From: Holophagales bacterium | Lineage (GTDB): Bacteria; Acidobacteriota; Thermoanaerobaculia; UBA5066 | Assembly: GCA_016714815.1 (NCBI GenBank) | Contig: JADKBZ010000016.1 | Span: forward strand, 37,659-101,658 | Direction: 5' to 3' | Length of the DNA: 64,000 nucleotides | Part shown: positions 37,269 through 63,692 of the stretch, piece after piece | How positions within the stretch are numbered: position 1 is the stretch's first letter | Layout of the letters: each line of letters begins with the position of its first letter | Notes under the pieces: generated by a model | Databases searched by the model: none | The model's input: the letters and a program-made list of their open reading frames with translations, nothing else | What the model was told of the DNA's origin: nothing | Made by a program: the position numbers and the translations under genes

Positions 37269-37316
37269 TCCGACCGACGAGTCGAAAACAGTTCGGTTCG
37301 CCGAGGAGGGCTGGCC

Positions 37317-39680: not shown

Positions 39681-39696
39681 TCGCTCGCCCACCCGA

Positions 39697-39729
39697 GACC
39701 ACCGCCGCCCGAGGCGGGCGGCGGTGGTC
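39697..39729. terminator. 14-bp GC stem-loop after the TonB receptor (no U-tract; terminator or mRNA-stabilising element)
   Basis: gaccaccgccgccc-gaggc-gggcggcggtggtc. Confidence 0.6.
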
Positions 39730-39788
39730 GAAGATGCGGCCCGCACCGTGCGGATCGAACCTCCGGGATCGGAGGGAAGGGCGCTGCC

Positions 39789-43514: not shown

Positions 43515-43541
43515 AACGGCGATGACGTGAAGGAGCCGGCC

Positions 43542-45575
43542 ATGACGCTCGACGACCCGAAGACGGAACCCGCAGCGGCGATGGTCTCGTTCGGGTCCGT
43601 GAGCTTTGAGGACCCGGATGCCTGGCTCGAGGAGGAGACCGAGACGGTCCTCTCGTGGCAGGCGGAGCAGGACGCGCGGGCGGCGTCCTGGCTCGCGGCG
43701 CGGCCCGGGTTCGCAGACCTTTGTGAGCGCATCGCCGCGCTCGACTCCAACCAGGCCGTGTCGGCGCCGCAGTACGGCGGTGGCCGCTGGTTCCGGCAGC
43801 GGGTGCCGGAGGGCGAGGACCTGGCAATTCTCGAGGTCGCGGAGACACCGACGGGAGAGGGCCGCCGGGTCGTCGACCTGAACGTGCTGCGAACCAGCGA
43901 GCCGCTGCTCATTCCCTGGTTCGTCCCCTCGCCCGACGGCCGCAGGCTGGCGTACTCGCGGTCCGCAGTGGGGCGGGAGCCCGAGTCGTTCCAGGTCATC
44001 GACGTGGAGACGGGCGAGCTCCTCCTCGCGGGCGTCCCGCAGGAGCGGGCGACGTCCCCGGTCTGGCTGCCGGACGGAAGCGGATTCACCTATCGGGCCA
44101 TCGATCCGGCCGTCTCGAAGAGCGACAGCCTCATCTTCCACCTCACCCTGGGCGAGGCGCCGCCGACGAAGCCGGAGCCGCTCGACCTGGGCCACCCGAT
44201 GTCGTGGCCCGCGAGCGCCGCGGGCGGCCGCTACGTCCTCGTCTACTCCAACCACATGGAGCCGAGGCCCGACTTCATCCGGGAGATCGGCGGCGCCTGG
44301 CGTCCGTTCCTGAAGGCCGTGCCCGGCATGTTCCGCGGCGTCGTCCTGGGCGAGAAGTTCATCGCCATCACGACCGACGGTGCCGCGCGGGGCCGGCTGG
44401 TCTCGATCCCGCTCGACACTCCTTCGGACCGCGACGCCTGGCAGGAGCTCGTCCCGGGCTCCGACGCCGTCCTCGCCTCTATCGCCGCCGTCGGGCAGCG
44501 CCTGGTCCTCGTGGAGCTCGTCGACACCTACGCCCGCCTGCGCGTTCTCGGCGCCGACGGCCAGGTCGAGGGAGAGATCGCCCTGCCGGGACGGGGAGTC
44601 GTGAACACGACCAGCACGAATGCCGTCGCGATCGCGTTCCTGGACTGCGTCGCCGTCGGGGGCGACGACGATGTCGTCTTCGTCTACTCCTCGCTGACCC
44701 AGGCCCCGGCGCTCTACCGCGCCAGCGTCGTCGATCGGACGAGCGAACCCCTCACGCCGCCCGGGGCCCGGCTCGACGCCCTCGTGACCGACCACTCCGC
44801 CACGAGCGCGGACGGCACCCGGGTCCGCTATCGCGTCGTGACGCGGAAGGACGACCGGTCCGGGTCCCGGCCCACGATCGTCCACGCGCACGGCGGGTTC
44901 AACGTCGCCTTCCTGCCCGGATGGCCGGTCCCGTTTCTGGCCGCCTGGGTCCGGTCGGGCGGCGCTCTCGTGATCGCCCACGTACGCGGGGGCGGGGAGT
45001 TCGGGCCCGACTGGTGGCGGGCCGGGCAGCTCGCGCGGAAGCAGAACGGATTCGACGATCTCTACGCCGTCGCCGAGGACCTCGTGGCCCGAGGCGTCAC
45101 GATGCCCGGACGGCTGGGCGTCTACGGGACCTCCAGCGGCGGTACGCTGGCCGCCGTGGCTGCGGTCAAGCGCCCCGACCTGTTCCGGGCCGCCGTCCCC
45201 CAGGTCCCCATCACCGACCAGTTCGCGCTCGTCCGGGACCCCCTCACCTGGATGATCGCGAGGTTGGAGGACGGGGATCCGAACGAACCGGAGATGAGCC
45301 GGGTCCTCCTCTCCTGGTCCCCGTACCAGAACGTCGTCGACGGAGTGGCTTACCCGGCGGTCCTCCTGGACTGCGTGTCGAACGAACCGCGGTGTCCCGC
45401 GTGGCACGGCCGCAAGCTGGCGGCACGGATGCAGCGGGCGACGTCCTCCGGCCGTCCCGTCCTGCTCCGGGTCCGCCGGAGCGCGGGGCAACGCGCCGTG
45501 GGCGAGGCCGCGCAGCGCCTCCAGCAGGCCGAGTTGCTCGCCTTCTTCGTCGACCAGCTGGGGCTCCCGACATGA
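43542..45575 (+). CDS. prolyl oligopeptidase (S9A) family protein with a deviant catalytic triad
   Basis: DPDAWLE, SPDG propeller, VRGGGEFGPDW, GTSSGG; Asp site reads NEPRC and His site reads AGQR. Confidence 0.88.
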   Translation: MTLDDPKTEPAAAMVSFGSVSFEDPDAWLEEETETVLSWQAEQDARAASWLAARPGFADLCERIAALDSNQAVSAPQYGGGRWFRQRVPEGEDLAILEVAETPTGEGRRVVDLNVLRTSEPLLIPWFVPSPDGRRLAYSRSAVGREPESFQVIDVETGELLLAGVPQERATSPVWLPDGSGFTYRAIDPAVSKSDSLIFHLTLGEAPPTKPEPLDLGHPMSWPASAAGGRYVLVYSNHMEPRPDFIREIGGAWRPFLKAVPGMFRGVVLGEKFIAITTDGAARGRLVSIPLDTPSDRDAWQELVPGSDAVLASIAAVGQRLVLVELVDTYARLRVLGADGQVEGEIALPGRGVVNTTSTNAVAIAFLDCVAVGGDDDVVFVYSSLTQAPALYRASVVDRTSEPLTPPGARLDALVTDHSATSADGTRVRYRVVTRKDDRSGSRPTIVHAHGGFNVAFLPGWPVPFLAAWVRSGGALVIAHVRGGGEFGPDWWRAGQLARKQNGFDDLYAVAEDLVARGVTMPGRLGVYGTSSGGTLAAVAAVKRPDLFRAAVPQVPITDQFALVRDPLTWMIARLEDGDPNEPEMSRVLLSWSPYQNVVDGVAYPAVLLDCVSNEPRCPAWHGRKLAARMQRATSSGRPVLLRVRRSAGQRAVGEAAQRLQQAELLAFFVDQLGLPT

Positions 45576-45630
45576 GACGTACCGGCCGCCCGCGACGACC
45601 GGGCTCTTCAGAGACGAGAGGCGACCGCCG

Positions 45631-47055
45631 ATGACGGAACCCGTGACGAAAGCTCCTGAAGCGTCCGCCGCCCCGAAGGGCCTCGGCTGGCGAGTGCTGG
45701 CCGCGTACGCCCTTCCGACGTTGCCGCTCTTCTTCCTCATGGGCCCCGCGATCTCGGTGATCCAGGGGATCTACGCGAAATTCTTCGGGCTCGGCCTGGC
45801 GCAGATCGCCCTCGTGCTGATGATCGCCCGGAGCTTCAACGCGGTGACCGATCCGGTCATCGGCTACCTGTCCGACCGCTACCGGGCCCGGCGAGGTACC
45901 CGGAAACCGTTTCTCGTCGGAGGGTCCCTGCTCGCGGTCCTGGCCTGCTGGTTCCTCTACGTCCCGGTCGGCAAGGTCACGACGCTCTCGTTCCTTGGCT
46001 GGTTTCTGCTCGCGGACATCGGCTGGTCGATGTGCGCCGTTCCGTACTACGCCTGGATGGCGGAGCTGACGGAGGACTACCGCGAGCGGACTCGGATAGC
46101 GAGCTGGCGCGCCATGTCCGGATACTTCGGTTACCTCGCGTTCTTCGGCATGCCGATGGCCGCCGGGCCCTTCCTCGGAACGACCGAGTTCACGCCCGTC
46201 ACGCTGCGCTGGTGCGCGATCTTCGCCGCCGTCACCCTGCCCACCGCGGCCCTGATCGCCGCGTTCGTCGTCCCGAACGGGGCCGTCGCCGCACGGCCGG
46301 CCGCCAACCCCTTCCGGGGAGCGATGCGTGCGATCGCGGGGAATCGCCCTCTCTGGAGATTCATGGCGATGTACCTGGTCGGGGGCCTGGGCGCAGGCAT
46401 GGCCTGGGGCGTGGCGTTCTTCTACATCGACGGCTACCAGAAGCTCGGCGCGAAGTTCTCGGGGCTGCTCGTCCTCAGCATTCCGGTCGCCATCCTGGCC
46501 ACGCCCGTCTGGGGCTGGCTCTGCAGGCGGTTCGGGAAGCAGCAGGTGTGGGCCGCCGGCTACGTCGGAGCGAGCATCGCCTCGCTCGGGTACATCTTCA
46601 TCTCGCCGGGACCCGGAGCCGCGGTCCTCGTCGGGGTCACTCTGCTGCTGCTGAACGCCATGGTCGTGGTGGATCCGGTCGCCGGGCCGGCGATGCTGGC
46701 GGACGTCGTCGACTACGGACGCTGGCGGTTCGGTACCGACCAGGGAGGGACTTACTTCGCCCTCTACGGGATGATCCAGAAGCTCAACATCGGGATCGGA
46801 GCGGGGGCCGGGCTCGCGCTCGCCGGCGCGTTCGGCTTCGACGCCACGGTCGCGAAGCAGACACCGGGCGGGCTCGTCGGCTTGTTCCTCTCGCTCTCGG
46901 TGATGCCGGCCGTCTGCTACCTGATCTCGGCCGTCATGATCTGGCGCTTTCCGATCAACCAGAAGCGCCAGAAGGTCATCGTGAAGGCCATCGAGCGGAG
47001 GGAGCGGCGCCGCGCCGCGGCGGCTTTCGAGGCGCCGGCGGAGGTCGCACCGTGA
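45631..47055 (+). CDS. MFS transporter, GPH/MelB-like
   Basis: AVTDPVIGYLSD, AELTEDYRERT, MLADVVDY; ~12 TM. Confidence 0.9.
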   Translation: MTEPVTKAPEASAAPKGLGWRVLAAYALPTLPLFFLMGPAISVIQGIYAKFFGLGLAQIALVLMIARSFNAVTDPVIGYLSDRYRARRGTRKPFLVGGSLLAVLACWFLYVPVGKVTTLSFLGWFLLADIGWSMCAVPYYAWMAELTEDYRERTRIASWRAMSGYFGYLAFFGMPMAAGPFLGTTEFTPVTLRWCAIFAAVTLPTAALIAAFVVPNGAVAARPAANPFRGAMRAIAGNRPLWRFMAMYLVGGLGAGMAWGVAFFYIDGYQKLGAKFSGLLVLSIPVAILATPVWGWLCRRFGKQQVWAAGYVGASIASLGYIFISPGPGAAVLVGVTLLLLNAMVVVDPVAGPAMLADVVDYGRWRFGTDQGGTYFALYGMIQKLNIGIGAGAGLALAGAFGFDATVAKQTPGGLVGLFLSLSVMPAVCYLISAVMIWRFPINQKRQKVIVKAIERRERRRAAAAFEAPAEVAP

Positions 47056-48116
47056 GTACGAGCAGGCCGGCCGAAACGAGGAACGCCAGCGCCCTGCTGC
47101 GCGACGGACTGGTCTGGGACAACCACGGCTGCATGCCGGTGGGACGCCCGAACGACACGTCGTTCCTGCCGCAGCTCCGGCGCTACCGTTCGGCGGGCGT
47201 CGACGCCGTGATGCTCAACGTCGGCTTCGGCGACATGGGCGTCGAGGAGCACCTGCGCACGCTGGCCGACATGCGCCACTGGCTGAAGGCGCGGCCCGAC
47301 GAGTACGTGCTCATCGGCACGGCGGACGACGTCGAGCGGGCCCGCGCGACCGGCCGCCTCGCCGTCGGCTTCGACATCGAGGGCGCGAACGCGATCGCGG
47401 ACCAGCCGAGCCTCATCGAGACCTACTACGACCTCGGTGTCCGCTGGATGCTCCTGGCTTACAACCGGAACAACCGGGTCGGAGGCGGGTGCCAGGACGA
47501 GGACACGGGCCTGACGGCCTACGGACGCGAGGTCATCGCCGAGATGGAGCGCGTGGGGATGCAGGTCTGCTGCAGCCACACCGGGTACCGCACCGTCCGC
47601 GACGTCTTCGAGGTCGTCACGAAGCCGGTCATCTTCTCGCACAGCAACGCGAGAGCGGTTCACGCGCACCCGCGGAACGTCCCCGACGACCTGATCCGCG
47701 CCTGCGCCGCGACGGGGGGCGTCGTCGGCCTCAACGGCCTGAGCGTCTTCCTCGGCCCGGGCGAGGACCTCGTCGAGACCTTCGTGCGCCACGTCGAGCA
47801 CGTCGTCTCTCTCGTCGGTCCCGGGCACGTCGCCCTGGGGCTCGACTACGTCTTCGACCGGCAGGAGCTGGACGAGATCCTCGTCAAGATGCGCGCGACC
47901 TTCCCGCCGGGGCTCGGCTACGACGAGCCGCTGCGGTTCGTCGAGCCGGAGCAGCTGGAGCGGGTCGTCGAGGTCCTCCTCTCCCGCGGCTTCCGGACGG
48001 CGGACCTCGAGGCGCTCCTGGGCGGAAACCTGATGAGGCTGGCGAGGTCGGTCTGGAAGGCTCCGCGCCCGGCCGCGGAAGCGACGGGCGATCAGCGGAC
48101 GAGCTCTCTCCCGTGA
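47052..48116 (+). CDS. M19 (renal/membrane) dipeptidase family
   Basis: WDNHGC, FDIEG, GVRWMLLAYN, SH-T, FSHSN, RNVPD. Confidence 0.9.
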   Translation: MSTSRPAETRNASALLRDGLVWDNHGCMPVGRPNDTSFLPQLRRYRSAGVDAVMLNVGFGDMGVEEHLRTLADMRHWLKARPDEYVLIGTADDVERARATGRLAVGFDIEGANAIADQPSLIETYYDLGVRWMLLAYNRNNRVGGGCQDEDTGLTAYGREVIAEMERVGMQVCCSHTGYRTVRDVFEVVTKPVIFSHSNARAVHAHPRNVPDDLIRACAATGGVVGLNGLSVFLGPGEDLVETFVRHVEHVVSLVGPGHVALGLDYVFDRQELDEILVKMRATFPPGLGYDEPLRFVEPEQLERVVEVLLSRGFRTADLEALLGGNLMRLARSVWKAPRPAAEATGDQRTSSLP

Positions 48117-49402
48117 GAGGGCTGCGCGCCGTCTTTAGCGACTACGTCGAGGCAGCGCGCGCCTTCTCGCAGCCCGCGAGGCTGCTCGTCGTCTCCGTTT
48201 TCCTCGTCTGGGTCGCCCGGGGAATCCAGGGGGTCCTCTTCAACCTCTATCTCGTCGAGGCCGGCCACCAGGCGCCGTTCGTCGGCCGGGCCCTTGCGAT
48301 GACGGGGGCCGGCATCGCCCTCGCGGCCCTCCCGGCGGGGCTCTTCGCGGAGCGCTGGGGCCGGCGCCGCTGCCTGATGCTCGGCCTCGCCGCCGAGGGA
48401 ATCGGCCTCCTGCTCCGGGCCCTCGTGACGGATCCGGGGGCGATCCTCGCCTTGAGCTTCCTCGGAGGCGCCGGCCAGTCGCTCTACCAGATCGCCGCCC
48501 TGCCATTCCTGACCGAGCACTCCGGGTCGCGCGAGCGGACGCACCTCTTCAGCGTCGTCTTCTCGGCGGCTCTCCTGGCCGGCGTCGTGGGGAGCGCCGT
48601 CGGCGGCTTCCTGCCTGCCGCCCTGCTCTCTCTTCCCGACGCAGTCCGGCCCGGGTCGCTCGGGGCGTACCGGGGGGTGCTCGTCCTGGGCGGGCTCGTC
48701 GCGTTCTCCGCCTCCCTGCCGCTCCTGCGGCTGCGCGGGCTGCAGGAGGCGTCGGCCGAGCAGCAGCGGGCGGTGCAGCCGCCCGGTTCGGGACGACTGC
48801 TCGTCCCGATCGCGTTCAACTTCCTCCTCGTCGGGTGCGGCGCCGGCCTCGTCGTCCCCTTCATGAACCTCTACTTCAAGGACCGCTTCGCCTGCTCGGC
48901 CGCGCAGATCGGGGCGTACTTCTCGATCGCGTCGATCGTCACGGCGGTCGCGGGCCTCGCCGCGCCGCTCGTCGCGCGCCGGTTCGGGACCCTCCGGACG
49001 GCCGTCGCGTTCGAGCTCCTCTCGCTCCCATTCCTCGTCACGATGGGGGCGGAGAGCCGACTCGCCGTAGCAGTCGGGGCGTTCTGGCTCCGCGCGATGC
49101 TCATGCAGGCCGGGACGCCGTTGCTGCAGACCTTCGTCATGGAGGCCCTCCCGCCGGGCCTTCGCGCCCGCTCGAGCAGCGTCAACAACCTCGTCTGGAA
49201 CCTCGGCTGGGCCGCGAGCGCCGGAGGCGCCGGGGCTCTGATCGCGCGCTGGGGCTACGCGCTTCCGTTCTACCTGACCGCCGCGCTCTACGCGACGGCA
49301 TCCATCACCTTCTACCTTTCGTTCCGGCGCTTCCCGCGAGGCGGGGGAGAGCCGCGGATCGGAGAGGTCGCCATGAGCCTCGGTGCTCAGGAGGTCCACT
49401 GA
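48113..49402 (+). CDS. MFS transporter
   Basis: AERWGRRR motif A, ~12 TM; GTGA overlap. Confidence 0.88.
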   Translation: MRGLRAVFSDYVEAARAFSQPARLLVVSVFLVWVARGIQGVLFNLYLVEAGHQAPFVGRALAMTGAGIALAALPAGLFAERWGRRRCLMLGLAAEGIGLLLRALVTDPGAILALSFLGGAGQSLYQIAALPFLTEHSGSRERTHLFSVVFSAALLAGVVGSAVGGFLPAALLSLPDAVRPGSLGAYRGVLVLGGLVAFSASLPLLRLRGLQEASAEQQRAVQPPGSGRLLVPIAFNFLLVGCGAGLVVPFMNLYFKDRFACSAAQIGAYFSIASIVTAVAGLAAPLVARRFGTLRTAVAFELLSLPFLVTMGAESRLAVAVGAFWLRAMLMQAGTPLLQTFVMEALPPGLRARSSSVNNLVWNLGWAASAGGAGALIARWGYALPFYLTAALYATASITFYLSFRRFPRGGGEPRIGEVAMSLGAQEVH

Positions 49403-49403
49403 C

Positions 49404-50738
49404 ATGAAAGAGAGCGTTTTCGAAGTCCTGCGCGCGGAGGGGCTGAACCGCCTGCGGATCCACTACGACTGGAGGTGCGACGTCTTCTCCCTCTACGCGG
49501 CGCGAGAGTGGGACGCCGACACGTCGTTCGCCCGGTACAACGCGGCGTTCACCGCCTGGACCCTCTGCCCGTCCGACGGGCGGTACCTCAATCACGCCCA
49601 GACGGAGGCGGCCTTCGAGAAGCATGGGATGTCGGCGCACCTCGGCAGGGTCAAGGAGCTGATGCGGAAGGGGAGGCACATCCTCCTCGATTGCTACTTT
49701 CACGAGAAGCTCGACATCCGCTTCGTCAACCACATCCACAGCGACAAGCGCGGCGTCAACAACCGGCGCTCGTCGATCGTGATGGGCGGGATCCGGCGCC
49801 ACGAGCCGGGCGAGGACGAGATCGACGTCTTCGTCGACGGGATGAACCTCGGCCGCGGGATGACATTCAAGAACGTGGCGGCCGGCCTGCCGATGGGCGG
49901 CTGCAAGACGACCGTCCAGATGGCGCCGGTCGACCTCGGCGACCTCGACCAGGTCGGCTTCCTGGCCTACGCGACGGACCGGACCCGGAATACCGCCGGA
50001 CCGGACATGAAGTTCCCTCCGGAGCTCGCCGACGTCGTGAACGAGCACTTCTCGCTGCACTTCGTGGGCGGGCCGAAGGGGCCTCTGGGCCCCACCGGCA
50101 CCCCCACCGCCCACGGGGTCTACATGGCCGTGAAGCAGGGGGCGAGATTCCTCTGGGGTTCCGAGTCTCTCGAGGGGAAGACGATCGCCGTGCAGGGGCT
50201 GGGCGCCGTCGGGTTCCACCTGGCGGGACTCTACCTGAAGGAGGGCGCGCGCCTCATCGTCTGCGACCGCGAGCCGGCCGCCGTCGACGCGTTCCTGAAG
50301 GCACAGCCGGGCGCCGCGATCCGGGTCGTCGATCCCGGGGAGATCCTCGGCGTCGAGGCGGACGTCTTCTCTCCGGCCGCGGCCGGCGGCATCCTGACGG
50401 AAGAGAACATCCCGGACCTTCGCTTCAAGCTGATCATGGGAGGCGCGAACAACGTTCTCCGAGCCTCCAGCCAGGAAGAGGAGTACGCGCTGGCCCGGCT
50501 GCTCGCGAAGCACGGAGTGCTCTACCAGGTCGATTGGTGGCACAACGTCGCCGGAGTGATGGCTGGCTACGAGGAGTACGTGTACCAGCGCGAAGCCAGC
50601 ATCGAACGGCTGATGGAGAAGGTCGGGAAGCTCTGCACCGAGACGACGTGGGAGAACCTGACCGAGGCCCGTCGCGAGGGGATCACGCCGACCGAGCGCG
50701 CCTACCGAACGGCGGAGCGCGAGGTCTACGGGGAATAG
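49404..50738 (+). CDS. Glu/Leu/Phe/Val dehydrogenase family with N-terminal extension
   Basis: GGIRR, RGMTFKN, GGCK, TAHGV, QGLGAVG, GGANN. Confidence 0.88.
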   Translation: MKESVFEVLRAEGLNRLRIHYDWRCDVFSLYAAREWDADTSFARYNAAFTAWTLCPSDGRYLNHAQTEAAFEKHGMSAHLGRVKELMRKGRHILLDCYFHEKLDIRFVNHIHSDKRGVNNRRSSIVMGGIRRHEPGEDEIDVFVDGMNLGRGMTFKNVAAGLPMGGCKTTVQMAPVDLGDLDQVGFLAYATDRTRNTAGPDMKFPPELADVVNEHFSLHFVGGPKGPLGPTGTPTAHGVYMAVKQGARFLWGSESLEGKTIAVQGLGAVGFHLAGLYLKEGARLIVCDREPAAVDAFLKAQPGAAIRVVDPGEILGVEADVFSPAAAGGILTEENIPDLRFKLIMGGANNVLRASSQEEEYALARLLAKHGVLYQVDWWHNVAGVMAGYEEYVYQREASIERLMEKVGKLCTETTWENLTEARREGITPTERAYRTAEREVYGE

Positions 50739-50797: not shown

Positions 50798-51997
50798 GTG
50801 ACACGGGTCTTCTCGTCCGACTATCGCGATCACGGGACCAGGTTCCCGGACCCCTTCCCGGTCCATCGGCTGAAGCGGGTCGATCGCCCGACCACCTGGA
50901 TCAACGAAGAAGAGATCCGGAGGGTCGACGAGCGGGACGGCGGATTCCACCGGGCCGGCCGCGGGGAATACGGCGGGCACATCCAGAAGGAGTACCACCG
51001 CTTTCAGGAGAAGTTCCCGCTCTCGGAAGCGCTCTTCGAGGTCACGCACCGGCTCGGCGAGCCCGACGCGGTCTCCGGCGCTCCGAGGCGAGGCCCGGCC
51101 CCGGGGACGGACGACCCGGCGGCGATGGCGAGGCACATCAAGGAGACCGGCTACTTCCTCCGGGCCGACATGATCGGGATCTGCAGGCTGCCGCCCTACG
51201 CGGTTTTCACCCATGGCCGCAAGGACGATCAGCCGATCGAGCTGACTCACGACTACGCGATCGCCATCCTGGTGGACCAGGACTACAAGACCTCGGCAGC
51301 GTTCAACGGGCGCGACTGGATCAGCAACTCGATGAGCCTGGTCGCCTATTCCCACTCGGCGTTCATCGCCTGCTCCCTGGCGGAGTACATCCGCTCGCTG
51401 GGATACGAAGCGCGGGCCCACCACGCGACGAACTACCAGGTCGTGCTCCCGCCGATCCTGCTCTGGGCGGGGCTGGGAGAGATGAGCCGGATGGGCGACG
51501 TCGTCCTGAACCCGTTCCTCGGCCCTCGCTTCAAGGCGGCGGTGGTGACGACCAGCCTGCCGCTGGAAGTCGACAAGCCGATCGACTTCGGGCTTCAGGA
51601 CTTCTGCGACAAGTGCGGGAAATGCGCCCGGGAGTGCCCGGTCCAGGCCATCTCCCACGGCGGCAAGGTCCGGGAGAAGGGATACGAGCGCTGGCCGGTG
51701 AACGTGGAGAAGTGCACGTCCATGCGGGTCGGGAATCGCCTCGGGTCGGGATGCGGAACCTGCATCAAAGTTTGCCCCTGGAACAAGCCCTTCACGCCGT
51801 TCCACCGGATGGTGAGCTGGAGCCTGAGGAACCTGCCCCCGACCCGCCGTCCCGCCATCTGGGCCGACGACCTGTTCGGGTACGGACGGCCGGACCCGAG
51901 ACGGAAGTGGTGGCTGGACCTCGAAGTGGTGGATGGAGAGTGGCGGATCCCGCGATGTGGGCCCTCGTCACAGCTCCCGGTCCGGGAGGAGCCCTGA
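50798..51997 (+). CDS. rdhA: cobalamin/2x[4Fe-4S] reductive dehalogenase, catabolic (non-respiratory) type
   Basis: ARHIKETGYFLRADMIGIC, DWIS, AGLGEMSRMG, NPFLGPRFK, TTSLPLEVDKPIDFGLQDFCDKCGKCARECP, CGTCIKVCPWNK; no Tat signal, no rdhB. Confidence 0.85.
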   Translation: MTRVFSSDYRDHGTRFPDPFPVHRLKRVDRPTTWINEEEIRRVDERDGGFHRAGRGEYGGHIQKEYHRFQEKFPLSEALFEVTHRLGEPDAVSGAPRRGPAPGTDDPAAMARHIKETGYFLRADMIGICRLPPYAVFTHGRKDDQPIELTHDYAIAILVDQDYKTSAAFNGRDWISNSMSLVAYSHSAFIACSLAEYIRSLGYEARAHHATNYQVVLPPILLWAGLGEMSRMGDVVLNPFLGPRFKAAVVTTSLPLEVDKPIDFGLQDFCDKCGKCARECPVQAISHGGKVREKGYERWPVNVEKCTSMRVGNRLGSGCGTCIKVCPWNKPFTPFHRMVSWSLRNLPPTRRPAIWADDLFGYGRPDPRRKWWLDLEVVDGEWRIPRCGPSSQLPVREEP

Positions 51998-51998
51998 C

Positions 51999-54065
51999 AT
52001 GACGCAACCGAGCACGACCGAAGTGGAAGCCCTCCTCGCGCCCTGGCCCGGTCCCTACGGCGGCCTGCCGCCCTTCGACGTGGCGACACCCGCCGCGATC
52101 GAGCGTGCGTTCGGGATCGCGCTCGAGAGGAAGCGCGCCGAACTGCGCGCCATCGGCGACAACCCGGCGCCGCCGACGTTCGAGAACACGGTGGAGGCGC
52201 TCGAGGACTCCGGACGGGAGCTCCGGCGCGTCTCCGTCGTCTACCAGGTCTTCGCGTCGACGATGGGGACGCCTCAGATGCGCGAGGTCGAAAAGAACGT
52301 CGCGCCTCTCCTCCCCGTCCTCGAGGACGAGATCGCGCACGACGACGCCCTCTTTGCGCGCATCGAGGCGGTCTGGCAGGGGAGGGAGGCCGCGGGCCTC
52401 ACGAGGGAGCAGGAGCGGCTGACGGAGCTCGTGCGCGACCGTCTGAAGCGGCGCGGGGCCGGGCTCCCGCCGGAGGCGAAGAAGCGCCTCGGGGAGATCA
52501 ACGCCCGCGTCGCCTCGCTCCAGGCGCGCTTCAACCAGAACCTCGTGACCGACCAGGACGGCCAGGCCGTCTTCATCGAGGACGAGAGCGGTCTCGACGG
52601 CCTCGGCGAGGAGCAGCGCCTCGCCGCCGCGCAGGCGGCGACCGAGCGCGGCCGGCCCGGGACCTGGGCGATCCCGAACAGGCGCCCCGCGGTCTGGCCC
52701 TTCCTGACGCAGTCCACCCGGCGCGACCTCCGCGAGAAGGTCTGGCGGATGTGGACGATGCGCGGAGACAACCCCGGCGAGAGCGACAACAAGCCGGTCA
52801 TCGCCGAGATCCTGAAGCTGCGCGGCGAAAAGGCTCGGCTTCTCGGCTTCCCCAGCTTCGCGCACTTCGCCACGGCCAACCGGATGGCCCGGACGCCGGA
52901 GGCGGCGCTCGAGCTGATGACGAAGACCTGGCAGAGCGTGATCGGGCCGACGCGCGCCCTCGTGGCGGACCTCCAGGCGATCGCCGACGCCGAGGGGGCC
53001 GGCATCCGCCTCGCGCCCTGGGACCGGCTCTTCTACTCGGCGAGGCTCCGCAAGTCCCGCTTCGACCTCGACGCCGACGCCGTGCGGCAGCACCTCGAGC
53101 TGGAATCGGTCCTGGCGGCGATCTTCTGGGCGGCGGGCCGCGTCCACGGCCTCGCGTTCCGCCAGCTCCCCGACGCACCGGTCTGCCACCCGTCGATCCG
53201 CGTCTTCGAGCTGAGCCGGGGCGGCGAGCCGGTCGGTCTCCTCTGGCTCGACGTCCTCGGCCGGCCGGGAAAGATGCACGGCTCGTGGCAGGCCGAGTAC
53301 CGCGCGGCGGAGTCGTTCCGGGGGCGGGTGCTGCCGATCTCCTCGGTGAACTCCGGCCTCCCGGCACCGCGGGACGGCGAGCCGGTCCTCCTCCCGTGGG
53401 AGTACGCGAACGTCCTCTTCCACGAGTTCGGTCACGCCCTCCACATGCTCCTCTCCGAGGCGCGCTACCCCTCCCTCGGGAGTGTCGCCGTGCCGTGGGA
53501 CTTCGTGGAACTCCCCTCGTTCCTCAACGAGCGGTGGCTCCTCGACCACGAGCTCCTCGCCCGCTTCGCGCGGCTGCACGGGACCGGCGCGCCGATCTCC
53601 GAGGAACTCGTGACGAGCATCGAGCGCGCGCTCCGCTTCGACCGCGTCCTGACGCTGAACCTCGACTTCCTCGGCGGGGCGATCGTCGACATGCGGATGC
53701 ACCTCCTGGCCGACGGCCGCGACGTCGACGCGGTCCGGCTCGAAGAAGAGACCCTCGCGGAGCTGGGGATGCCGGAGGCCTGGGACCTCATCATGAGGGT
53801 CCCGCACTGCTGGCACTCCATCTCCGACGGCTACGCGGCGGGCCTCTACTCCTACCTCTGGTCCGACGTCATGACGGCCGACGTCGCCGAGGCGTTCCTC
53901 TCCTCGCCCGGAGGTCTCTACGACGTGGAGACCGGCGAGCGGTGGCGACGGACGATCCTGAGCGTCGGGACGAGCGTCCCTGCCGAGGAGGCGTTCCGGG
54001 ACTTCATGGGGCGCGACCCCGACCCATCGGCCCTGCTGCGCCGATTCGGGCTGGAGGCCCGATGA
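51999..54065 (+). CDS. M3 family metallopeptidase (Dcp-like), copy A
   Basis: [41 protein letters not shown]. Confidence 0.93.
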
Positions 54066-54151
54066 CAATGCCGACCCGCAAGACCCTCCCGCGATCCCTC
54101 GATTCCCTTCACCGCGACTTCCACCGCACCGACCCGGGGAGCGCCCCATGA
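54062..54151 (+). CDS. 29-aa mini-ORF ([29 protein letters not shown])
   Basis: ATGA overlaps with both the upstream M3 stop and the downstream IYD start. Confidence 0.45.
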
Positions 54152-54873
54152 GCCAGCCGCCGGAATCCGATCCCTGCGTCCTCGAGCCCCTTCCCGACTA
54201 CCGCGAATATCCGGCGGAGGAGATGCGCGAGCGCGCCCGATGGTTCTACCGGGACGTCGCGCGACGTCGCACGGTGCGCGAGTTCGACCGGCGCCCGGTC
54301 CCCCGGGAGGTGATCGAGCAGTGCCTTCTCGCGGCGGGCACCGCGCCCTCGGGCGCGAACCAGCAGCCGTGGCACTTCGCCGTCGTCACCGATCCCGTTC
54401 GCAAGAAGAAGATCCGCGAAGCGGCCGAGGAGGAGGAGCGGGAGTTCTACGCCGGCCGGGCGCCGCAGGAGTGGCGGGACGCGCTGGCGCCCCTCGGGAC
54501 GGACGAGAACAAGCCCTTCCTGGAGGACGCCCCCGTCCTCATCGCGATCTTCGCGCAGGCTCACGGCGTCCGGCCGGACGGGGAGCGGCTCAAGCACTAC
54601 TACGTGCACGAGTCGGTCGGGATCGCGACGGGCTTCCTCCTCGTCGCCCTCCACCACGCCGGTCTCGCGACGCTGACCCACACGCCGAACCCGATGGGCT
54701 TTCTCAACGAGTGCTGCGGGCGGCCGTCCTCCGAGAAGCCGATGATCCTCCTCGTCGTCGGCTATCCCGCACCGGGCTGCCGGGTCCCCGTGCACGGCGG
54801 GATCAAGAAGCCGCTGGAGGGGATCTCGAGCTGGCTCGGGCCCGAAGGCGGCCGAACGGAGCCGACTCCATGA
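54148..54873 (+). CDS. iyd: iodotyrosine deiodinase (IYD)-like flavoprotein, nitroreductase fold
   Basis: [56 protein letters not shown]. Confidence 0.88.
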
Positions 54874-56982
54874 CGGATCGCAACGGAGACCAGCCAGCGC
54901 CCCGCACCCTCGACCTCTCGCCGGCCGCGGAGGCGCTCCTCGCACCCTGGACCGGGCCCTGCGGGGGCACGCCGCCGTTCGACGTGGCGGAGCCCGCGTC
55001 GATCGAGAGCGCCTACCGGGTCGCCATCGCCCGCAAGCGCGAGGAGGTCGCGGCGATTGCCTCGGACCCGGCGCCGCCCACGTTCGAGAACACGATCGCG
55101 GCGCTCGAGGATGCCGGCCGGGCGCTCCGCCGTGTCGACACCCTCTTCCGGGTCTTCTCGTCGACGCGGAGCTCCGGGGAGATGCGTGAGGTGGAGACGA
55201 GACTCAAGCCGCTCCTTCCCGCTCTCGAGGACGAGATTGCCCACGACGACGCCCTCTTTGCCCGGATCCGTGCAGTCGACCAGTCGGCCGAGCAGGCGGG
55301 GCTCACGCCCGAGGAGATTCGCCTGACCCGCGTCGTCCGCGACCGGCTCTCGCTGCGGGGCGCCGGACTCGAGCCGGGCGCCAGGGCGCGCCTCGCCCAG
55401 ATCAGCGGACGGATCGCCGAGCTCTCCGCCGCCTTCAGCCAGAACCTCCTCGCGGACGAGGAGGGGCAGCAGGTCCCCCTCGACGACGAGGCGGATCTCG
55501 AGGGCCTCGACGAGGAGTTCCGCGGCGTGCTCGCATCCGCCGCCGTGTCGCGCGGGCTCTCCGCGCGCTGGGCCGTCCCCAGCACGCGCGCCCACGTCAT
55601 GCCCGTTCTGATCTCTTCGGCGCGTCGCGAGGTCAGGGAACGGGTCTGGCGCATGTGGGTGCGGCGCGGCGGGAACCCCGGCGCGCACGACAACAGGCCC
55701 GTCGTCGCCGAGATCCTCCGCCTGCGCGCGGGAGAAGGCCCGGCTCCTCGGCTTCCCGACCTACGCCCACCTCGCCACGGCCGACCGGATCGCGGGGACG
55801 CCGGAGAACGCCCTCGCCCTCGTGAAGCGGGTCTGGGACGGCGTCGTCGGCGCCGCTCGCGACCGGCTCGCCTCGATGCAGGCGCTCGCGGACGAGGACG
55901 GCGTCTGCCCGATCGCGCCCTGGGACCGGCGCTTCTACGCGAGCCGGCTGCGCCGGGCACGCCTGGACCTCGATGAAGGAGAGGTGAGCGCCTACCTGCC
56001 GGTTGAGTCGATCCGCGAGGGAGCGTTCCACGCGGCGAGCCGGCTTCACGGACTCGACCTCGCGGAAGTCCACGACGTCCCCGTCTGCCACCCCGACGTC
56101 CGCGTCTTCGCCGTGCGGCGAGGGAAGGAGTCGATCGGCCTCCTCTGGCTCGACCTCTACGCGCGCGACGGCAAGGTCTCGGGCGGCTGGATGGACGAGT
56201 ACCGCGCGGCGGAGTCCTTCCGCGGAAGGGTCCTTCCGCTCGTGTCGATCAACATGAACGTCGCGAGACCGGCGGCGGGAGCGACGGCGCTCCTCTCATG
56301 GTGGGACGCTCTCACCTTCTTCCACGAGCTGGGCCACGCTCTCCACATGCTCTGCTCGAAGGCGCGCACTCCCTCGCTCGGGAGCTTCACGGTCGCCCCC
56401 GACGTTCTCGAGCTGCCGTCGATCCTGAACGAGCGCTGGCTCACGACGCTCGAGGTGCTCGAACGGTTCGCGCGGCACCACCGGACCGGAGAGCCGATGC
56501 CGAAGCGTCTCGTCGAGAGGATCGAGGAAGCCCGGGTCTTCGACCCCTCCGACGGGGCGACCGCGAGTCTCGGCTACCTGGCGACGGCCTTCGTCGACCT
56601 CGCCGTCCACCTCGCGGCCGATGGCGGGGAGGTCGACCCTGTCGCTGTAGAGGAGAGGGCCCTTGCAGACCTCGGCCTCCCGCCAGCTGCCGAGCCGCTC
56701 CATCGCGTCACGCACCTCCGTCACGCCTTCGCCGGCATCTACGAGGACCGCTACGCGGCCGGCTACTACTGTTACCTCCAGGCGGACGTCCTCGCGGCCG
56801 ACGCGGCGGAGGCATTCCTCTCGTCACCGGGAGGGCTCTACGACGCCGCGACGGCCGAGCGGTATCGGCGCACGATCCTCGCCGTCGGTCACGGCGTCCC
56901 CGCGGCGGAGGCCTTCCGGTCGTTCCGGGGCCGCGATCCGGACCCCGAGGCGCTGACGAGACGGTTCGGACGGAAATCCTGA
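54870..56982 (+). pseudogene. M3 family metallopeptidase copy B with +1 frameshift at ~55731 (pseudogene or sequence error)
   Basis: ctgcgcgcg-g-gagaaggcccggctcctcggcttc: removing one G restores [12 protein letters not shown] as in copy A; HELGH and ELPS intact downstream. Confidence 0.85.
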
Positions 56983-57002: not shown

Positions 57003-58241
57003 ATGAAGCAGATTCTCTTCCGCGGTTTCCACCTTCTCGACCCGGAGCTCGACGAGCCCCGGGCAGGCTGCGAGCTCCTCGTCGAGGGCGACCGGATCCG
57101 CGAGGTCTCCGACCGGCCGATCCAATCGTCCGGGGCCGAGGTCATCGACGGCGACGGCGCTTTCCTGATGCCCGGCCTCATCGACGCCCACGTCCACGTG
57201 ACGCTTTCCGAGGTGGCGCTCCGGCGGCTGGAGGAGGTGCCGCTGACGCTGATGACGGCCCGGGCCGCCGTCCAGATGCGGGCGATGCTCGACCGTGGCT
57301 TCACCACGGTGCGCGACACCGGGGGTGCCGACTGGGGCCTGAGGGCTGCCGTGGAGCAGGGACTCTTCGCCGGGCCGCGCCTCTTCATCGCCGGACGCGC
57401 CATCGGGCCCACGGGCGGCCACAGCGACATTCGCCGCCGGACCGACAGCGGGATCCGCTGTCACTGCTGCGACGCGCTGACGTTCGCCCTCGCCGTGGCC
57501 GATGGCGAGACCGAGGTCCGCAAGGCCGTCCGCGAGGAGCTCCGTCAGGGCTGTGACCAGGTCAAGATCATGATGTCGGGCGGGGTCGCGTCGCCCTTCG
57601 ACCCGATCGACAGCCTCCAGTTTTCCCCCGGCGAGGTCGCCGCCGCGGTCGAGGAGGCCCACGCGTTCGGCCGGTACGTCTGCGCTCACGCCTACACGCC
57701 GGCCGCGATCACGCGCGCGGCCCACGCCGGGGTCCGCACGATCGAGCACGGCAACCTGATCGACGACGCCTCCGCGCTCCTCATGGCAAGCAAGGGAATG
57801 TTCCTCGTCGCGAACCTCGTGACGTACTTCGCGATGCGCGAGCGCGCGGCCGAGCTCGGAATGACCGCGGAGATGCTCGCCAAGAACGAGGTCGTCATCG
57901 AGGGCGCGCTCCGCTCTCTCGAGGTCTGCCGACGCGCCGGCGTGCCGGTCGCCTTCGGCAGCGACCTTCTCGGACAGCTCCAGGAGGAGCAGTCGCGCGA
58001 GTTCACGCTGCGCGCGCAGGTCGTCAGCCCCGTCGAGGCGATCCGCTCGGCGACGACGATCGCCGCGCGCGTCCTCCGGCGCGAAGGCGTCCTCGGGTGT
58101 CTCAGGCCGGGCGCTCTCGCCGACCTGATCGCGGTCGACGGCGACCCGCTGAAGGACCTCTCCCTCCTCGAAGGCCAGGGCCGGCACCTGACCCTGATCA
58201 TGAAGGGCGGCCGGTTCCACCGTCGCCCCGGAGGGCTGTAG
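57003..58241 (+). CDS. metal-dependent amidohydrolase (Xaa-Pro dipeptidase/carboxypeptidase-like)
   Basis: MPGLIDAHVH, GFTTVRD, KIMMSGGV, AHAY, IEHG, GSD, GALADLI. Confidence 0.92.
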   Translation: MKQILFRGFHLLDPELDEPRAGCELLVEGDRIREVSDRPIQSSGAEVIDGDGAFLMPGLIDAHVHVTLSEVALRRLEEVPLTLMTARAAVQMRAMLDRGFTTVRDTGGADWGLRAAVEQGLFAGPRLFIAGRAIGPTGGHSDIRRRTDSGIRCHCCDALTFALAVADGETEVRKAVREELRQGCDQVKIMMSGGVASPFDPIDSLQFSPGEVAAAVEEAHAFGRYVCAHAYTPAAITRAAHAGVRTIEHGNLIDDASALLMASKGMFLVANLVTYFAMRERAAELGMTAEMLAKNEVVIEGALRSLEVCRRAGVPVAFGSDLLGQLQEEQSREFTLRAQVVSPVEAIRSATTIAARVLRREGVLGCLRPGALADLIAVDGDPLKDLSLLEGQGRHLTLIMKGGRFHRRPGGL

Positions 58242-58243
58242 AG

Positions 58244-59782
58244 GTGGGCTCAGACGGACCGAGGGACCCCCGCGAGGTCGTAGACCTCACCTCGAGGGAA
58301 GAGCTCCAGAGCGTCGTGGAGTTCCTCGCTCACGACCTACTCGAAGGTCGCGCGCCGGGAACCCGGGGCGGCCGGCTGAGCGAGCTCTACATGCAGAGCC
58401 TCTTTAAGCTCCTCGGCCTCCGGCCGGGGATCGACGGCGGCTACCTGCAGCCCTTCCGGATGAAGGGGTACACCACACGCCACGTGGCGGTCGGGGTCCC
58501 CGGGCTCGAGCTCAGGAGTCCGGACGACGTGATGGGCGTTCAGGCCCGCGACGAGCCCTCCCTGGACGTGGAAGCCGAGGCCGTCTTCGTCGGCTTCGGG
58601 ATCCGGACGCCCCTCTTCGGCTGGGACGACTTCAAGGGGCACGACGTGAGGGGCAAGGTCCTGATCGTGCGGGCGAACGACCCGGGCCACTGCGACCCGT
58701 CGCTCTTCGAAGGCGCCTCCGTGACCTACTTCGGGAGGTGGAGCTACAAGATCGAGGAAGCGCGGCGGGCGGGAGCCCGGGCGATCCTGATCGTCCACAC
58801 CGACGAGAGTGCCGGGTACGACTGGGGCGTCGTGGAGCGCTCCTGGGGCCGGGAGAACGTCTTCCTGCCGTCGTCCCTCGAGAACGACCTCGAGTTTCAG
58901 GGATGGATCAGGGAGGAGAGCCTCCGCCGGCTCCTGGCGACGAAGGGGCTGAGCCTCGACGACGTCTACCGCGACACGCTGAAGGAGACCTTCGAGCCCG
59001 TCCCTCTCGGGATGTCGATCCGGATCACGGGCGAGAACGAGTTCCGGACGGTCGAAGCGGCGAACGTCGTTGCCGAGATTTCCGGCCGGAGCGAGAGGCG
59101 GATCGTGCTCTCCGCCCACATCGACCACATCGGCCACCAGCCCGACCAGCCGGGCGACAACGTCTTCAACGGAGCCATCGACAACGGCTCCGCCGTGGCC
59201 GCCATGGTCCTTGCGGCGAAGGCGCTGAACGCGTTCCGCGAGGAGCTGCCGTACACGATCACGCTCCTCGCCTGCACGGCCGAGGAGGGAGGGCTCCTCG
59301 GGTCGTACCACTACGTGCGGAACACCGATCGCTCGAGCATCCTGGCGAACGTGAACTTCGAGTCGACGCCGGTCTGGGAGAGGAGCCGGAGCGTGATGGG
59401 CGTCGGGGCTCACTACTCCACGCTGGAAGGCCACCTGAAGGAGATCGCGGCCGAGGAGGGCCTCCTCTATTCGGAGTTCTCGCGGACGGACCAGGGCTTC
59501 TTCTACCGCTCCGACCAGTTCCCGTTCGCCCGGTACGGCATCCCGGCTGTCTGGATCTCGGCCGGCGAGGACTTCGAGAGCGGCCAGGACCACTTCGGGG
59601 AATTCCTCCGGAACACGTACCACACGGTCCGCGACGACTTCGACCCCGGGTGGGAGCTCGAGGCGCTCCGGCAGACCGTCCGGAGCGCCGTGATGCTCGT
59701 CGAACGGATCGGGCGGAGCCCGGAGCCGCCTCGGTGGAAGGCGAGGCTCACGTTCCCGTCGGAGGCCCGGGAGCCGGGCTGA
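58244..59782 (+). CDS. M28 family peptidase with PA domain
   Basis: LAHDLLEGR, TYFGRWSYK, SAHIDH, GAIDN, AEEGGLLGS, RSDQ, YHT. Confidence 0.92.
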   Translation: MGSDGPRDPREVVDLTSREELQSVVEFLAHDLLEGRAPGTRGGRLSELYMQSLFKLLGLRPGIDGGYLQPFRMKGYTTRHVAVGVPGLELRSPDDVMGVQARDEPSLDVEAEAVFVGFGIRTPLFGWDDFKGHDVRGKVLIVRANDPGHCDPSLFEGASVTYFGRWSYKIEEARRAGARAILIVHTDESAGYDWGVVERSWGRENVFLPSSLENDLEFQGWIREESLRRLLATKGLSLDDVYRDTLKETFEPVPLGMSIRITGENEFRTVEAANVVAEISGRSERRIVLSAHIDHIGHQPDQPGDNVFNGAIDNGSAVAAMVLAAKALNAFREELPYTITLLACTAEEGGLLGSYHYVRNTDRSSILANVNFESTPVWERSRSVMGVGAHYSTLEGHLKEIAAEEGLLYSEFSRTDQGFFYRSDQFPFARYGIPAVWISAGEDFESGQDHFGEFLRNTYHTVRDDFDPGWELEALRQTVRSAVMLVERIGRSPEPPRWKARLTFPSEAREPG

Positions 59783-59824: not shown

Positions 59825-61114
59825 CTACGGGACCGCGGGCCCCACCTCCTGCGAGAAGAACACGGCGTCCCAGGCTTCCCAGGGAATCGTCGTGTTGTAG
59901 GGCATGACGCCGAACAGCTCGTGCGGCGTCGCCAGCCAGGAGGCCACCTGAGGCGTTGCCGTGTGCAGGTCGAGCACCGCGTAGCGATGGGGAAGCTCGG
60001 CCAGGCGCGCCTCGATCGTTCCCGCCGCCGCGCGGGTGCCGGGCTCCCCGCGGCGGATCGCCTCGCTGGCGAACAGGTGGGCGATCGTCACGAGCTCTTT
60101 CCCGTAGCGGCGCCTCAGGTACATGCCGACCATCGGAGGCAGGGTCCAGGCGGCGATCTGAGGAGGGATCCGGATCGTCGACATCGAGCCGGCGAGGTGG
60201 TCACGGTGCGCGAACAGGAGGAGACGCCCCTCCGGTCCGAGCTGCCGGCGGATCCAGTCGACGTTGTCGGCCTTGGCGCGATCCGCCGAGGCGACGGTCC
60301 CGGCGAGGCCCTGAAAGCCGTCCGCGGGTTTCCAGCCGATCGGCAGCTGGCGCAGGTATTCGTCGACCTGGCGTGCCGCGACGGCGGCACGGTGGGCGAG
60401 GGCGAAGTCGCGGTCGGTCGTCGCGCGCGCGTACTCGTTTTCGTGGATCGCGAGCGCTGCGATGACGTCGGCAACCGTGGCGGTCAGCCGGTCGCGCTGC
60501 GCCTGGTCCAGTTCCGTGTACTGGCCGGGCGCGTCGGACCGCCGGTCGAGCTTCAGCTTCGGTACGAGGTCCTCGATGCGGGTGCGGAGCGAAGCGGCCA
60601 GCGCCGCATCGCGGGCGCCGAGGTAGTCGAGCGCCACGAAGAGAGTGCGCTGCATGTCGTCGGGGCTTCCCGGGACGTCCATGCCGTAGAACTCGACCTT
60701 GCGGCGGTGTGCCGGGTTCGCGTTGTACTCGCGCATCCAGCGGACCAGCTCGACGTTCTGCGGCATCCGGTCGAAGCCGGCGGTGAAGCCGCGCGCCACG
60801 ACCTCGCCGAGGTCCCCGGGACCGCCGAGCACCCAGCGGTTCACCTCGAATCCCTCGGTGATGCCCGACTCGATCGCGATCGCCGTGAAACCCAGGTTCT
60901 CGACCAGGAACCGGAACAGGCGATTGCGGAAGTCGAGTGGTTCGGCGCCGCCGTGAAGTCCCTCGCCGAAGGAGACGACGGGGGCCTGGCCGATGATCGC
61001 CCTCAGGGGCTCGAGATCGGTGTCGGTGCCACCCGGTGTCCCGCACTCGATCGCGTGGGCGTTCGCGCGGGCCCACTCCGCGAAGGCCTCGCCTCCCGTC
61101 GAAGGCCCCCTCAC
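59825..61114 (-). CDS. erythromycin esterase (Ere/TIKI superfamily) family protein
   Basis: [43 protein letters not shown]; GTGA overlap with the RHH gene. Confidence 0.85.
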
Positions 61115-61329
61115 GGTTCCGTCCCGCCCTCTGCCCCGCCCCGGGGCCGCGCCCGCCGCCGGCCCCGGACCGCCTCCCGGAGGAGGTACTCGACCTGGCC
61201 GTTCACGCTCCGGAACTCGTCCGCCGCCCACTTCTCGAGCTCGGCGAAGAGAGCGGGGTCGATCCGGAGCAGGAACGCTTTTCGAGGCTCCGCTGGGCGG
61301 CCCGGTCCGGCGGCAGGTGGATTCGCCAT
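61111..61329 (-). CDS. Arc-family ribbon-helix-helix DNA-binding protein
   Basis: [34 protein letters not shown]. Confidence 0.85.
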
Positions 61330-62397: not shown

Positions 62398-62596
62398 CGT
62401 GAAATACGGACGGTCAAGAGGAAGGTTTCCGGAATGGAGGGGAGGGGACGGCGACCCTCGTCTCCGGGTTGCCGTTCCCTGACGTCCTTCGGGATGACGA
62501 AGGCGTCGCACGCCCGTGCCGATTTCCGGGGACGACCGGGAACCAGACGGCCCGGACACCAATCCAAGGAGGAATGCAGACCCGAGGAGGTGTCCC

Positions 62597-63583
62597 ATGA
62601 CCCACGCGATCCGAGCCCTGGCCGTCGCCACCTGTCTCGCCTGCGCCGCGATCTCCACTCGCGGTCTCGCGTGCGGCCCGCCCCCGACGCTGAGGCAGCT
62701 CGTTGCGTCGGCCGAGCCGATCCTCCTCGTCCAGGCCGTCGAGCGCAGGCAGGTGCCCGCCGAGGAGTGCACCTGCGGCTGCGAATCGCGGGAACGCATC
62801 ACCTTCGAGGTGCTGGAGTCCTGGACCGGTGGCGGTCCCCGGACCCTCGTGATGGACCTCTATTTCGATCCCGGCGAGCCCCAGCCCGCGATGCTGCTCG
62901 TCGGTACGTTCAACGGGGAGCGGGCCGCTTCTCCCGGCTACTTCCCGATTCACTCGTTCAGGGACCGGGACGACCCGGCCGTCGACGTGGTGCGCGAGGC
63001 CGTGAATCGCGCCGTGGTGCTGGCGCGGCAGGGAGAGTCTCCCGATCCGGGCCTGCTGCGCGTCCACATCGTCGAGTCGCTGCTCCAGGCCGCCACCCGG
63101 GTCGACGGGCTGAACGAGGCGTCACGCCTGGCCTGGGGCCGGGAGCCGACCCCGCTGGTGCTCGACGATCAGGAGGCTGACGACGTCGCGGCGGCGGCGG
63201 TTCGGGACGACCTGAAGAGCTGGGAGCTGGCCCAGGTACTGGCGCTCTTCGACGAGGTGACGAGCCCGGAGCTTCGGGCCCTGGTGCTGAAGCGCGTCGA
63301 CGAAGCGGTCGGCTCGGAGGAGCCGGAGTATCTCGTCGACCTGTTCCTGCGGGCGCTCCGCTCGGAGTGTCCGCCCTCGGTGGAGGTCGAGGGCGAGGAG
63401 GGGGGCGAGGGCGAAGCGCTGCCGGACGCGCCGCTCGCGGACGAGCTGGAATACGAGGAGCCGACCGCCGAGGAGATGCGGCGCTGGCAGGAGGAAGCGG
63501 ATCGTCTGGCCGCGGTCGAGAAACAGAGGTGGAGCGAGTTCCGCGTGGCCTGGCCGGCCCTCCGGAAGACGCTGGTCCGGTGA
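62597..63583 (+). CDS. secreted hypothetical protein
   Basis: GAGGAGG Shine-Dalgarno, signal peptide, Cys-containing N-domain, acidic helical C-terminus. Confidence 0.7.
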
Positions 63584-63622
63584 CGGCGGTCCGTCCATTC
63601 GCACCCGGGCGACGAGGAGACT

Positions 63623-63645
63623 GGAGGAGGTCGAGGTCCTCCTCC
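63623..63645. terminator. hairpin between convergent genes
   Basis: ggaggagg-tcgaggt-cctcctcc. Confidence 0.45.
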
Positions 63646-63692
63646 GGTGCCTCGACGCCCAACCCGCGTTCTCGGCGAGGTCACCTGCCGGT

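Follow-up and report, generated by a model that had tools for sequence, protein, structure and literature searches.

The protein encoded at 54148–54873 on the + strand of the window (the whole 64,000-nucleotide stretch of Holophagales DNA analysed here) is, on every sequence-level criterion, a member of the iodotyrosine deiodinase (IYD; halotyrosine dehalogenase) subgroup, and its gene lies within a peptide-utilisation locus together with an unrelated, B12-dependent reductive dehalogenase. Taken by itself, the gene adds one more ordinary, well-conserved member to an enzyme family that is already known. The novelty lies in where IYD is found: it recurs, in changing gene orders, with one particular peptide-utilisation locus, and here it is co-located with a B12 dehalogenase; a literature search returned no paper linking bacterial IYD to peptidase loci or to a reductive dehalogenase (RdhA). 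Judged from its sequence, the protein is very probably an active halotyrosine dehalogenase. On balance, we also favour the fuller explanation, a halotyrosine dehalogenase with a peptide-linked role, which builds on family membership, residue conservation, gene order, the overlap of start and stop codons and the recurrence of the association; from these we infer the substrate, the activity, the halogenated peptides and the electron donor.

IYD is the iodide-salvage enzyme of the thyroid and, more recently, has emerged as a bromotyrosine regulator in Drosophila. The reason that bacteria keep the enzyme is an acknowledged open question, and the exposure of bacteria to halotyrosines has not been studied (PMC8668982). 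The enzyme has been described from 'a limited number of bacteria' (PMC11126969). In our searches, homologues were very numerous, forming more than 8000 clusters at 90% identity with E<1e-20 and spanning many phyla.

The open reading frame begins with ATG, encodes 241 residues and has a third-position GC of 0.87–0.95 in frame, a value typical of real genes in this sequence of 71% GC; the hexamer GGGGAG occurs 8–13 nt 5' of the ATG. It contains the motifs EEEEREFY (aa 94–101), NKPFL (aa 121–125) and THTP (aa 177–180) far above chance expectation, and the lid motif and THTP named in the original prediction were recovered at these positions. When the protein was compared with the PDB by phmmer, the six best distinct matches were all IYDs, with E values of 4e-68 to 3e-23. 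Haliscomenobacter hydrossis IYD (HhIYD; 5ko7) came first, with an E value of 4.2e-68 and 55% identity in an ungapped alignment of aa 20–214, and the mouse (3gb5/3tnz, ~5e-50), human (4ttb/5yak, ~1e-47, 45% identity) and Thermotoga neapolitana (6pz0, 3e-23) enzymes were also among these matches. The first non-IYD nitroreductase in the ranking appeared only at 1e-13. Rows for TAL effectors (aa 117–144) held no significant stretch and were discarded as chance matches. No NCBIfam model matched the protein at its cut-off, and no N-terminal membrane anchor was found.

The IYD subgroup is defined by the E1 lid, which carries a near-universal Glu/Tyr/Lys triad that binds the zwitterion of halotyrosine, and closure of this lid brings a threonine to flavin N5; in mesophile IYDs, moreover, an alanine serves the phenolate as backbone donor, and a stacked Trp-Tyr pair connects E1 with an E2 loop (PMC8668982). 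In the window protein, the triad is formed by E97, Y101 and K122, and the threonine is T179. Alignment with human and Haliscomenobacter IYD, the comparison originally proposed for this gene, placed the lid residues on the known positions. By the ungapped alignment, the window numbering is offset by +6 from the 5ko7 chain, with E97, Y101, K122 and T179 corresponding to positions 91, 95, 116 and 173. The window THTP aligns through T179 with the THTP of HhIYD, and human and mouse IYD read TTTP there.

All four residues are invariant in 90 aligned homologues, human and H. hydrossis included, as well as in a second set of 68, and the same holds for W109, Y151, A66/A70, R40 and R44; residue Y152 is replaced by Phe in one of the 90. 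Together with the rank of IYDs at the top of the PDB list, this invariance bears out the initial reading of the gene as an IYD homologue that keeps its halotyrosine-recognition residues. Within the RRTVR motif, R40, R41 and R44 are conserved. The APSGA motif is retained, with A66 and A70 both invariant and one of these two alanines presumably being the backbone donor. Because the alignment contains no gaps, the E1 and E2 elements are of the same length as in HhIYD, and the protein carries the mesophile signatures of Ala, E2 loop and Trp(E1)-Tyr pair.

Human and mouse IYD/DEHAL1 (4TTB/4TTC, 3GB5/3GFD), to which the 45% identity applies, share with the window protein the FMN-binding RRxVR, APSGA, the lid triad, the Trp-Tyr brace and the threonine near N5. 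The mammalian enzyme, however, is membrane-anchored at its N terminus and recovers iodide for thyroid hormone, whereas the window protein has no anchor, and we know of no iodide economy in its organism. With HhIYD (5KO7/5KO8/5KRD), the likeness extends over 195 residues without gaps and includes the lengths of the E1 lid and E2 loop, the Glu/Tyr/Lys triad, the THTP threonine, a short N-terminal extension and the lack of a membrane anchor. Unlike HhIYD, the window protein belongs to another, mostly proteobacterial-type subclade, and its gene forms part of a peptide locus that also contains an RdhA, while for HhIYD no genomic role is described in PMC8668982 or PMC11126969. The T. neapolitana enzyme (TnIYD; 6PZ0/6Q1L) is of the same subgroup, with the triad E68/Y72/K92 (PMC8668982). 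Neither the E2 loop nor the N-terminal extension is present in TnIYD, and its backbone-donor Ala is replaced by Met; the window IYD, which has both E2 and Ala, belongs to the mesophile type.

Genes between 37.1 and 59.8 kb all lie on the + strand, overlapping or separated by short gaps, and no terminator-like site was found on this strand between 49.0 and 60.5 kb. The first part of the run (37140–49402) is devoted to uptake and hydrolysis and encodes a TonB-dependent receptor (37140–39680), an unknown protein (39734–41024), a DUF885 protein (41024–42757), an alpha/beta hydrolase (abH; 42729–43514), an S9 prolyl-oligopeptidase-like protein (43527–45575), an MFS_2 transporter (45631–47055), an M19 dipeptidase (47052–48116) and an MFS_1 transporter (48113–49402). 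For the function of DUF885, we found matches only to uncharacterised structural-genomics entries, and a literature search gave no informative paper.

Next in order are a homologue of the Glu/Leu/Phe/Val-type amino-acid dehydrogenases (49383–50738), which is weakly closest to the Trp dehydrogenase ScyB at 137 bits against a cut-off of 600, and, two genes upstream of IYD, a compact cytoplasmic B12/2x[4Fe-4S] reductive dehalogenase of NpRdhA type with 399 residues (50798–51997). An M3 peptidase resembling peptidyl-dipeptidase Dcp and bearing an HEFGH motif (M3a; 51999–54065) ends 82 bp upstream of IYD. The TGA of IYD overlaps, as ATGA, the ATG of a second, Dcp/oligopeptidase-A-like M3 peptidase (M3b; 54870–56982), and this overlap is common to the window, the same-order genome G010 and the homologous locus L001. 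Downstream of M3b follow an Xaa-Pro-dipeptidase-like amidohydrolase (57003–58241) and an M28 aminopeptidase (58244–59782).

In the window, the M3b frame is split by one extra base at position 55729. By alignment, the base is absent from G010 and L001, and it is likewise absent from two DNA and two RNA public runs that are otherwise near-identical over 2.3 kb, which points to a probable error of the MAG consensus and an intact gene. M3b is accordingly unlikely to be a pseudogene. A further mismatch was noted at 49755, within the dehydrogenase gene, where all four metatranscriptome assemblies have C and the window has G, which is due either to strain variation or to a second error of the consensus.

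The substrate of IYDs is the free amino acid; 2-iodophenol, which is unable to close the lid, is for that reason turned over very poorly (PMC8668982). Since the free amino acid is needed, a position downstream of, and overlapping, peptidases that cut oligopeptides down to dipeptides and single amino acids is expected for an enzyme that clears halotyrosine released from imported peptides. We propose that the TonB-dependent receptor and the MFS transporters would take up peptides, which the DUF885, abH, S9, M19, M3 and M28 proteins would break down to free amino acids. IYD would most likely then dehalogenate the halotyrosine released from these imported peptides, making its tyrosine usable and preventing the halogenated analogue from accumulating. 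The enzyme itself would be a soluble, FMN-dependent member of the nitroreductase superfamily and, by homology, a homodimer. Its E1 lid (E97, Y101, K122) would close over the zwitterion of free 3-halo-L-tyrosine (I, Br or Cl), moving T179 to flavin N5, and reduced FMN would strip the halogen by one-electron steps to give L-tyrosine and halide. The B12 reductive dehalogenase and the amino-acid dehydrogenase may handle other halogenated aromatic products. Candidate natural substrates include chlorinated cyanobacterial peptides and halogenated tyrosyl peptides arising from water chlorination. A match to HgmA (homogentisate dioxygenase), an enzyme of tyrosine breakdown, was marginal at 21 bits.

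Loci homologous to the one in the window recur around related IYDs. We found the orders abH-x-AraC-IYD-TonB-MFS2-DUF885 in L118 (IYD 81% identical to that of the window), abH-M19-AraC-IYD-TonB in L120 (82%), M19-DUF885-abH-M3a-IYD in L127 (74%) and TonB-DUF885-abH-M3a-(1 kb)-IYD in L140 (76%), while in L138 (75%) abH-DUF885-M19 is divergent from AraC-TonB, which IYD follows. Smaller groupings are M3-IYD-beta-lactamase-like in L130 (75%) and M20-IYD in L002 (79%); the adjacency of M3a and then IYD recurs in L127 and L130. In the first five loci, identity to the window homologues is 57–69% for abH, 54–69% for M19, 46–58% for DUF885, 59–62% for M3a, 49% for MFS2 and 26–32% for TonB. Gene orders differ among the recurrent loci, and their GC content is 0.52–0.69 against 0.71 for the window. 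On the IYD tree they occupy two branches, among other loci in which the association is missing. As DUF885, abH, M19 and MFS2 are each single-copy in the 6.7-Mb genome, the probability of chance co-location is well under 1%.

Roughly 30 further loci with an IYD of this subclade (at least 72% identical) do not have the peptide locus, nor do any of the loci below 72%. The neighbourhood of the family at large was surveyed in 80 species-level genome loci by tblastn with the proteins of the window cluster, which gave no match near IYD for M3 or M19, three for M28 and one for M20. The 145 immediate neighbours of IYD in these 80 species scatter over 181 Pfam families, none with more than five members and none dominant, and peptidases are near background. 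No conserved partner emerges, and a family-wide association of IYD with peptidases is therefore rejected. The link between IYD and the peptide locus is thus real but patchy, confined to part of one IYD subclade.

The window genome is a MAG of 6.7 Mb in 36 contigs, which we compared with 41 relatives of the same order. Among these, the 26-kb segment at 34800–61130 occurs only in the window genome and in G010. At its left edge lies a gene for a PLP group-II decarboxylase of the aromatic-amino-acid or glutamate decarboxylase family (34866–36380, − strand), a function that fits the aromatic amino-acid theme, and at its other edge an erythromycin-esterase-like gene (59825–61231, − strand). G010 has the same locus with additional genes: M3a and IYD are separated by an erythromycin-esterase-like and a beta-lactamase-like gene, and the amidohydrolase is followed by an M20 peptidase and a Mem_trans gene. 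In three genomes of the same genus (G016, G006 and G009), the flanks at ~31.5–34.8 kb and 61.1–62.4 kb adjoin, enclosing a lone IYD in the same orientation that is distantly related to the window IYD (58–60% aa identity); the 26-kb segment is therefore variable. As for signatures of a mobile element, no flanking repeats of at least 11 bp were found, and the GC content of the segment (0.70) equals that of its flanks.

IYD is present in 16 of the 41 same-order genomes, the window type only in G010 (93% identity) and the others at 50–59%. In trees, the window IYD is placed within a clade made up mainly of MAGs from Burkholderiales and other Pseudomonadota (SH-like support 0.92–0.96), far from the resident IYD of its genus, a position that fits acquisition by transfer and replacement. 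Two transporter genes absent from the window were seen in related IYD modules: a SulP/STAS anion transporter gene directly upstream of IYD in L001 (634–2379) and an auxin-efflux-carrier-type (Mem_trans) gene in G010 (L019, 5805–6761) and L001. A role for them in halide or amino-acid transport is conceivable.

These comparisons bear on the leading alternative explanation, in which the enzyme serves housekeeping repair or detoxification, clearing halotyrosine from the cell's own HOCl/HOBr-damaged proteins or from free uptake, and its peptidase neighbourhood is an accident of a recombination hotspot. The lone IYDs of the same-genus genomes occupy the same slot without any peptidase, and the slot is variable, with an extra 1.7 kb in G009 and an ORF of 355 residues found only in the window genome. 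The family has no conserved neighbour, and some relatives adjoin MsrA/MsrB, AhpC or redoxin genes. The organism's habitat also agrees with such a role: near-identical sequence is found in wastewater, activated-sludge and biofilm metagenomes and metatranscriptomes, and chlorine-type oxidants occur in wastewater and activated-sludge settings. We nevertheless regard this explanation as rather unlikely, given that the window, G010 and L001 share the ATGA overlap with M3b, that at least six rearranged contexts from two subclades place IYD among homologues of the single-copy locus genes, and that this locus type has also taken in an unrelated dehalogenase.

The peptide-linked role, foreseen in the original prediction as finishing the catabolism of halogenated peptides, has real though indirect backing from the NpRdhA-type gene two genes upstream, the overlap of the IYD stop with M3b and the recurrence of homologous peptide loci. 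It is narrowed by an association limited to part of one subclade, by the lack of a family-wide neighbour and by the lone IYD at the same site within the genus. The sequence of the locus turned up in four metatranscriptome assemblies; contigs of the RNA runs cover genes of both strands evenly, and DNA carry-over is possible, so their presence is no proof of transcription.

A substrate other than halotyrosine was also considered, namely 3-nitrotyrosine or another ring-substituted tyrosine from peptides, or a mainly nitroreductase function in which activity on halotyrosine is confined to the test tube. The sole Pfam match of the protein is the generic Nitroreductase domain (PF00881, E 2e-26, aa 37–206, full profile covered), and nitroreduction is the fallback reaction of IYDs when the lid stays open (PMC8668982). 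Our genome search found no halogen source or clear halogenase; the halogenase model PF04820 gave a weak, non-specific match of a kind also given by control genomes such as E. coli. The residues for zwitterion binding and for tuning FMN to one-electron chemistry are, however, all invariant, and all IYDs tested, from human to Thermotoga, prefer halotyrosines (PMC8668982; PMC11126969). The score was 28.1 bits for the NfsB model NF008275 (cut-off 227), which matched aa 37–95 only, and 57 bits for the BluB model (cut-off 150), leaving the protein outside generic NfsA/NfsB. The B12 dehalogenase in the same operon adds to the halogen theme, and we find a non-halogenated substrate improbable.

The neighbouring RdhA is mechanistically unrelated to IYD, being a B12/Fe-S enzyme, and is relevant here only as a co-located second dehalogenase. 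It scored 193.9 bits with TIGR02486, above the cut-off of 160.35, which makes it a member of the RdhA family, and it has a Fer4 dicluster at aa 268–329. Searches gave E values of 2.6e-120 for 4ras and 2e-29 for PceA. NpRdhA of Nitratireductor pacificus (4RAS), the closest known relative of this neighbour and not of IYD, aligns over its residues 260–632 (E 1e-100); the window RdhA is similarly cytoplasmic, with no RdhB, but lacks the N-terminal 250 residues.

The nearest RdhA homologues (L112–L114, 81–86% identity) occupy the same locus type and have no IYD. Their typical order is TonB-abH-DUF885-abH-S9-MFS2-M19-(MFS1)-dehydrogenase-RdhA-M3-(M24)-beta-lactamase-like-amidohydrolase-MR_MLE-DAO, and in the closest homologues the atypical amino-acid dehydrogenase is always directly upstream of RdhA and an M3 peptidase downstream. 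More distant RdhAs (L116 and L117) have unrelated contexts. In L115, a nitroreductase gene lies 1.4 kb from an RdhA of 71% identity, but only an N-terminal segment of 71 residues is similar and the protein is not an IYD; it was rejected as an independent RdhA–IYD pair. Conversely, no RdhA was detected on the contigs of the related IYD loci L118, L120, L127, L138 and L140. A single type of peptide locus has thus taken up IYD in some organisms, RdhA in others and, here, both. That an unrelated second dehalogenase has also entered this locus type supports the view that halogenated aromatic residues may be a recurring part of its substrate pool.

An obligate pathway in which IYD and RdhA act sequentially on one polyhalogenated tyrosine-derived substrate, with RdhA, for instance, attacking a dihalophenol that is deaminated or peptide-bound and IYD attacking the mono-halo amino acid, is improbable: among the 41 relatives the window genome and G010 alone have an RdhA and combine it with this IYD type, an amino-acid dehydrogenase is always upstream of RdhA and NpRdhA acts on ortho-halophenols, but the two genes are separable, as the loci with only one of them attest, two genes stand between the two modules in G010, and mammalian IYD alone handles both mono- and di-iodotyrosine.

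Two of these results bear on the role of IYD in bacteria: the family is very common in the environment, and one of its subclades has repeatedly been built into a peptide locus. Tentatively, and with less than even confidence, we suggest that a conserved, rearranging peptide locus has recruited IYD in some bacteria and a B12 RdhA in others, with both present in this Thermoanaerobaculia lineage, and that it constitutes a dedicated pathway by which tyrosine-containing, halogenated peptides are used as food, for instance natural halopeptides or the chlorination and bromination products of proteins. If true, such a pathway would be the first physiological role for bacterial IYDs and a route for recycling halogenated amino acids from natural peptides and disinfection-damaged proteins, and the matched enzyme set of transporters, peptidases and two dehalogenases would be of interest for bioremediation. 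The association with the locus makes the role of bacterial IYD directly testable with named genes and substrates.

Two further observations were made at the margins of this analysis. In another organism, a tight co-directional block on a JGI 3300045998 contig (L119, 1345–4218; IYD 81% identical) has the order Phe-4-hydroxylase-like (Biopterin_H)-IYD-M20, which links IYD to tyrosine supply. Lastly, the 355-residue ORF of the window (62516–63583, + strand) has no Pfam or NCBIfam match and is absent from same-genus genomes that are otherwise collinear, so the region around it (62452–63693) is a second small insertion, located beside an SPFH gene.
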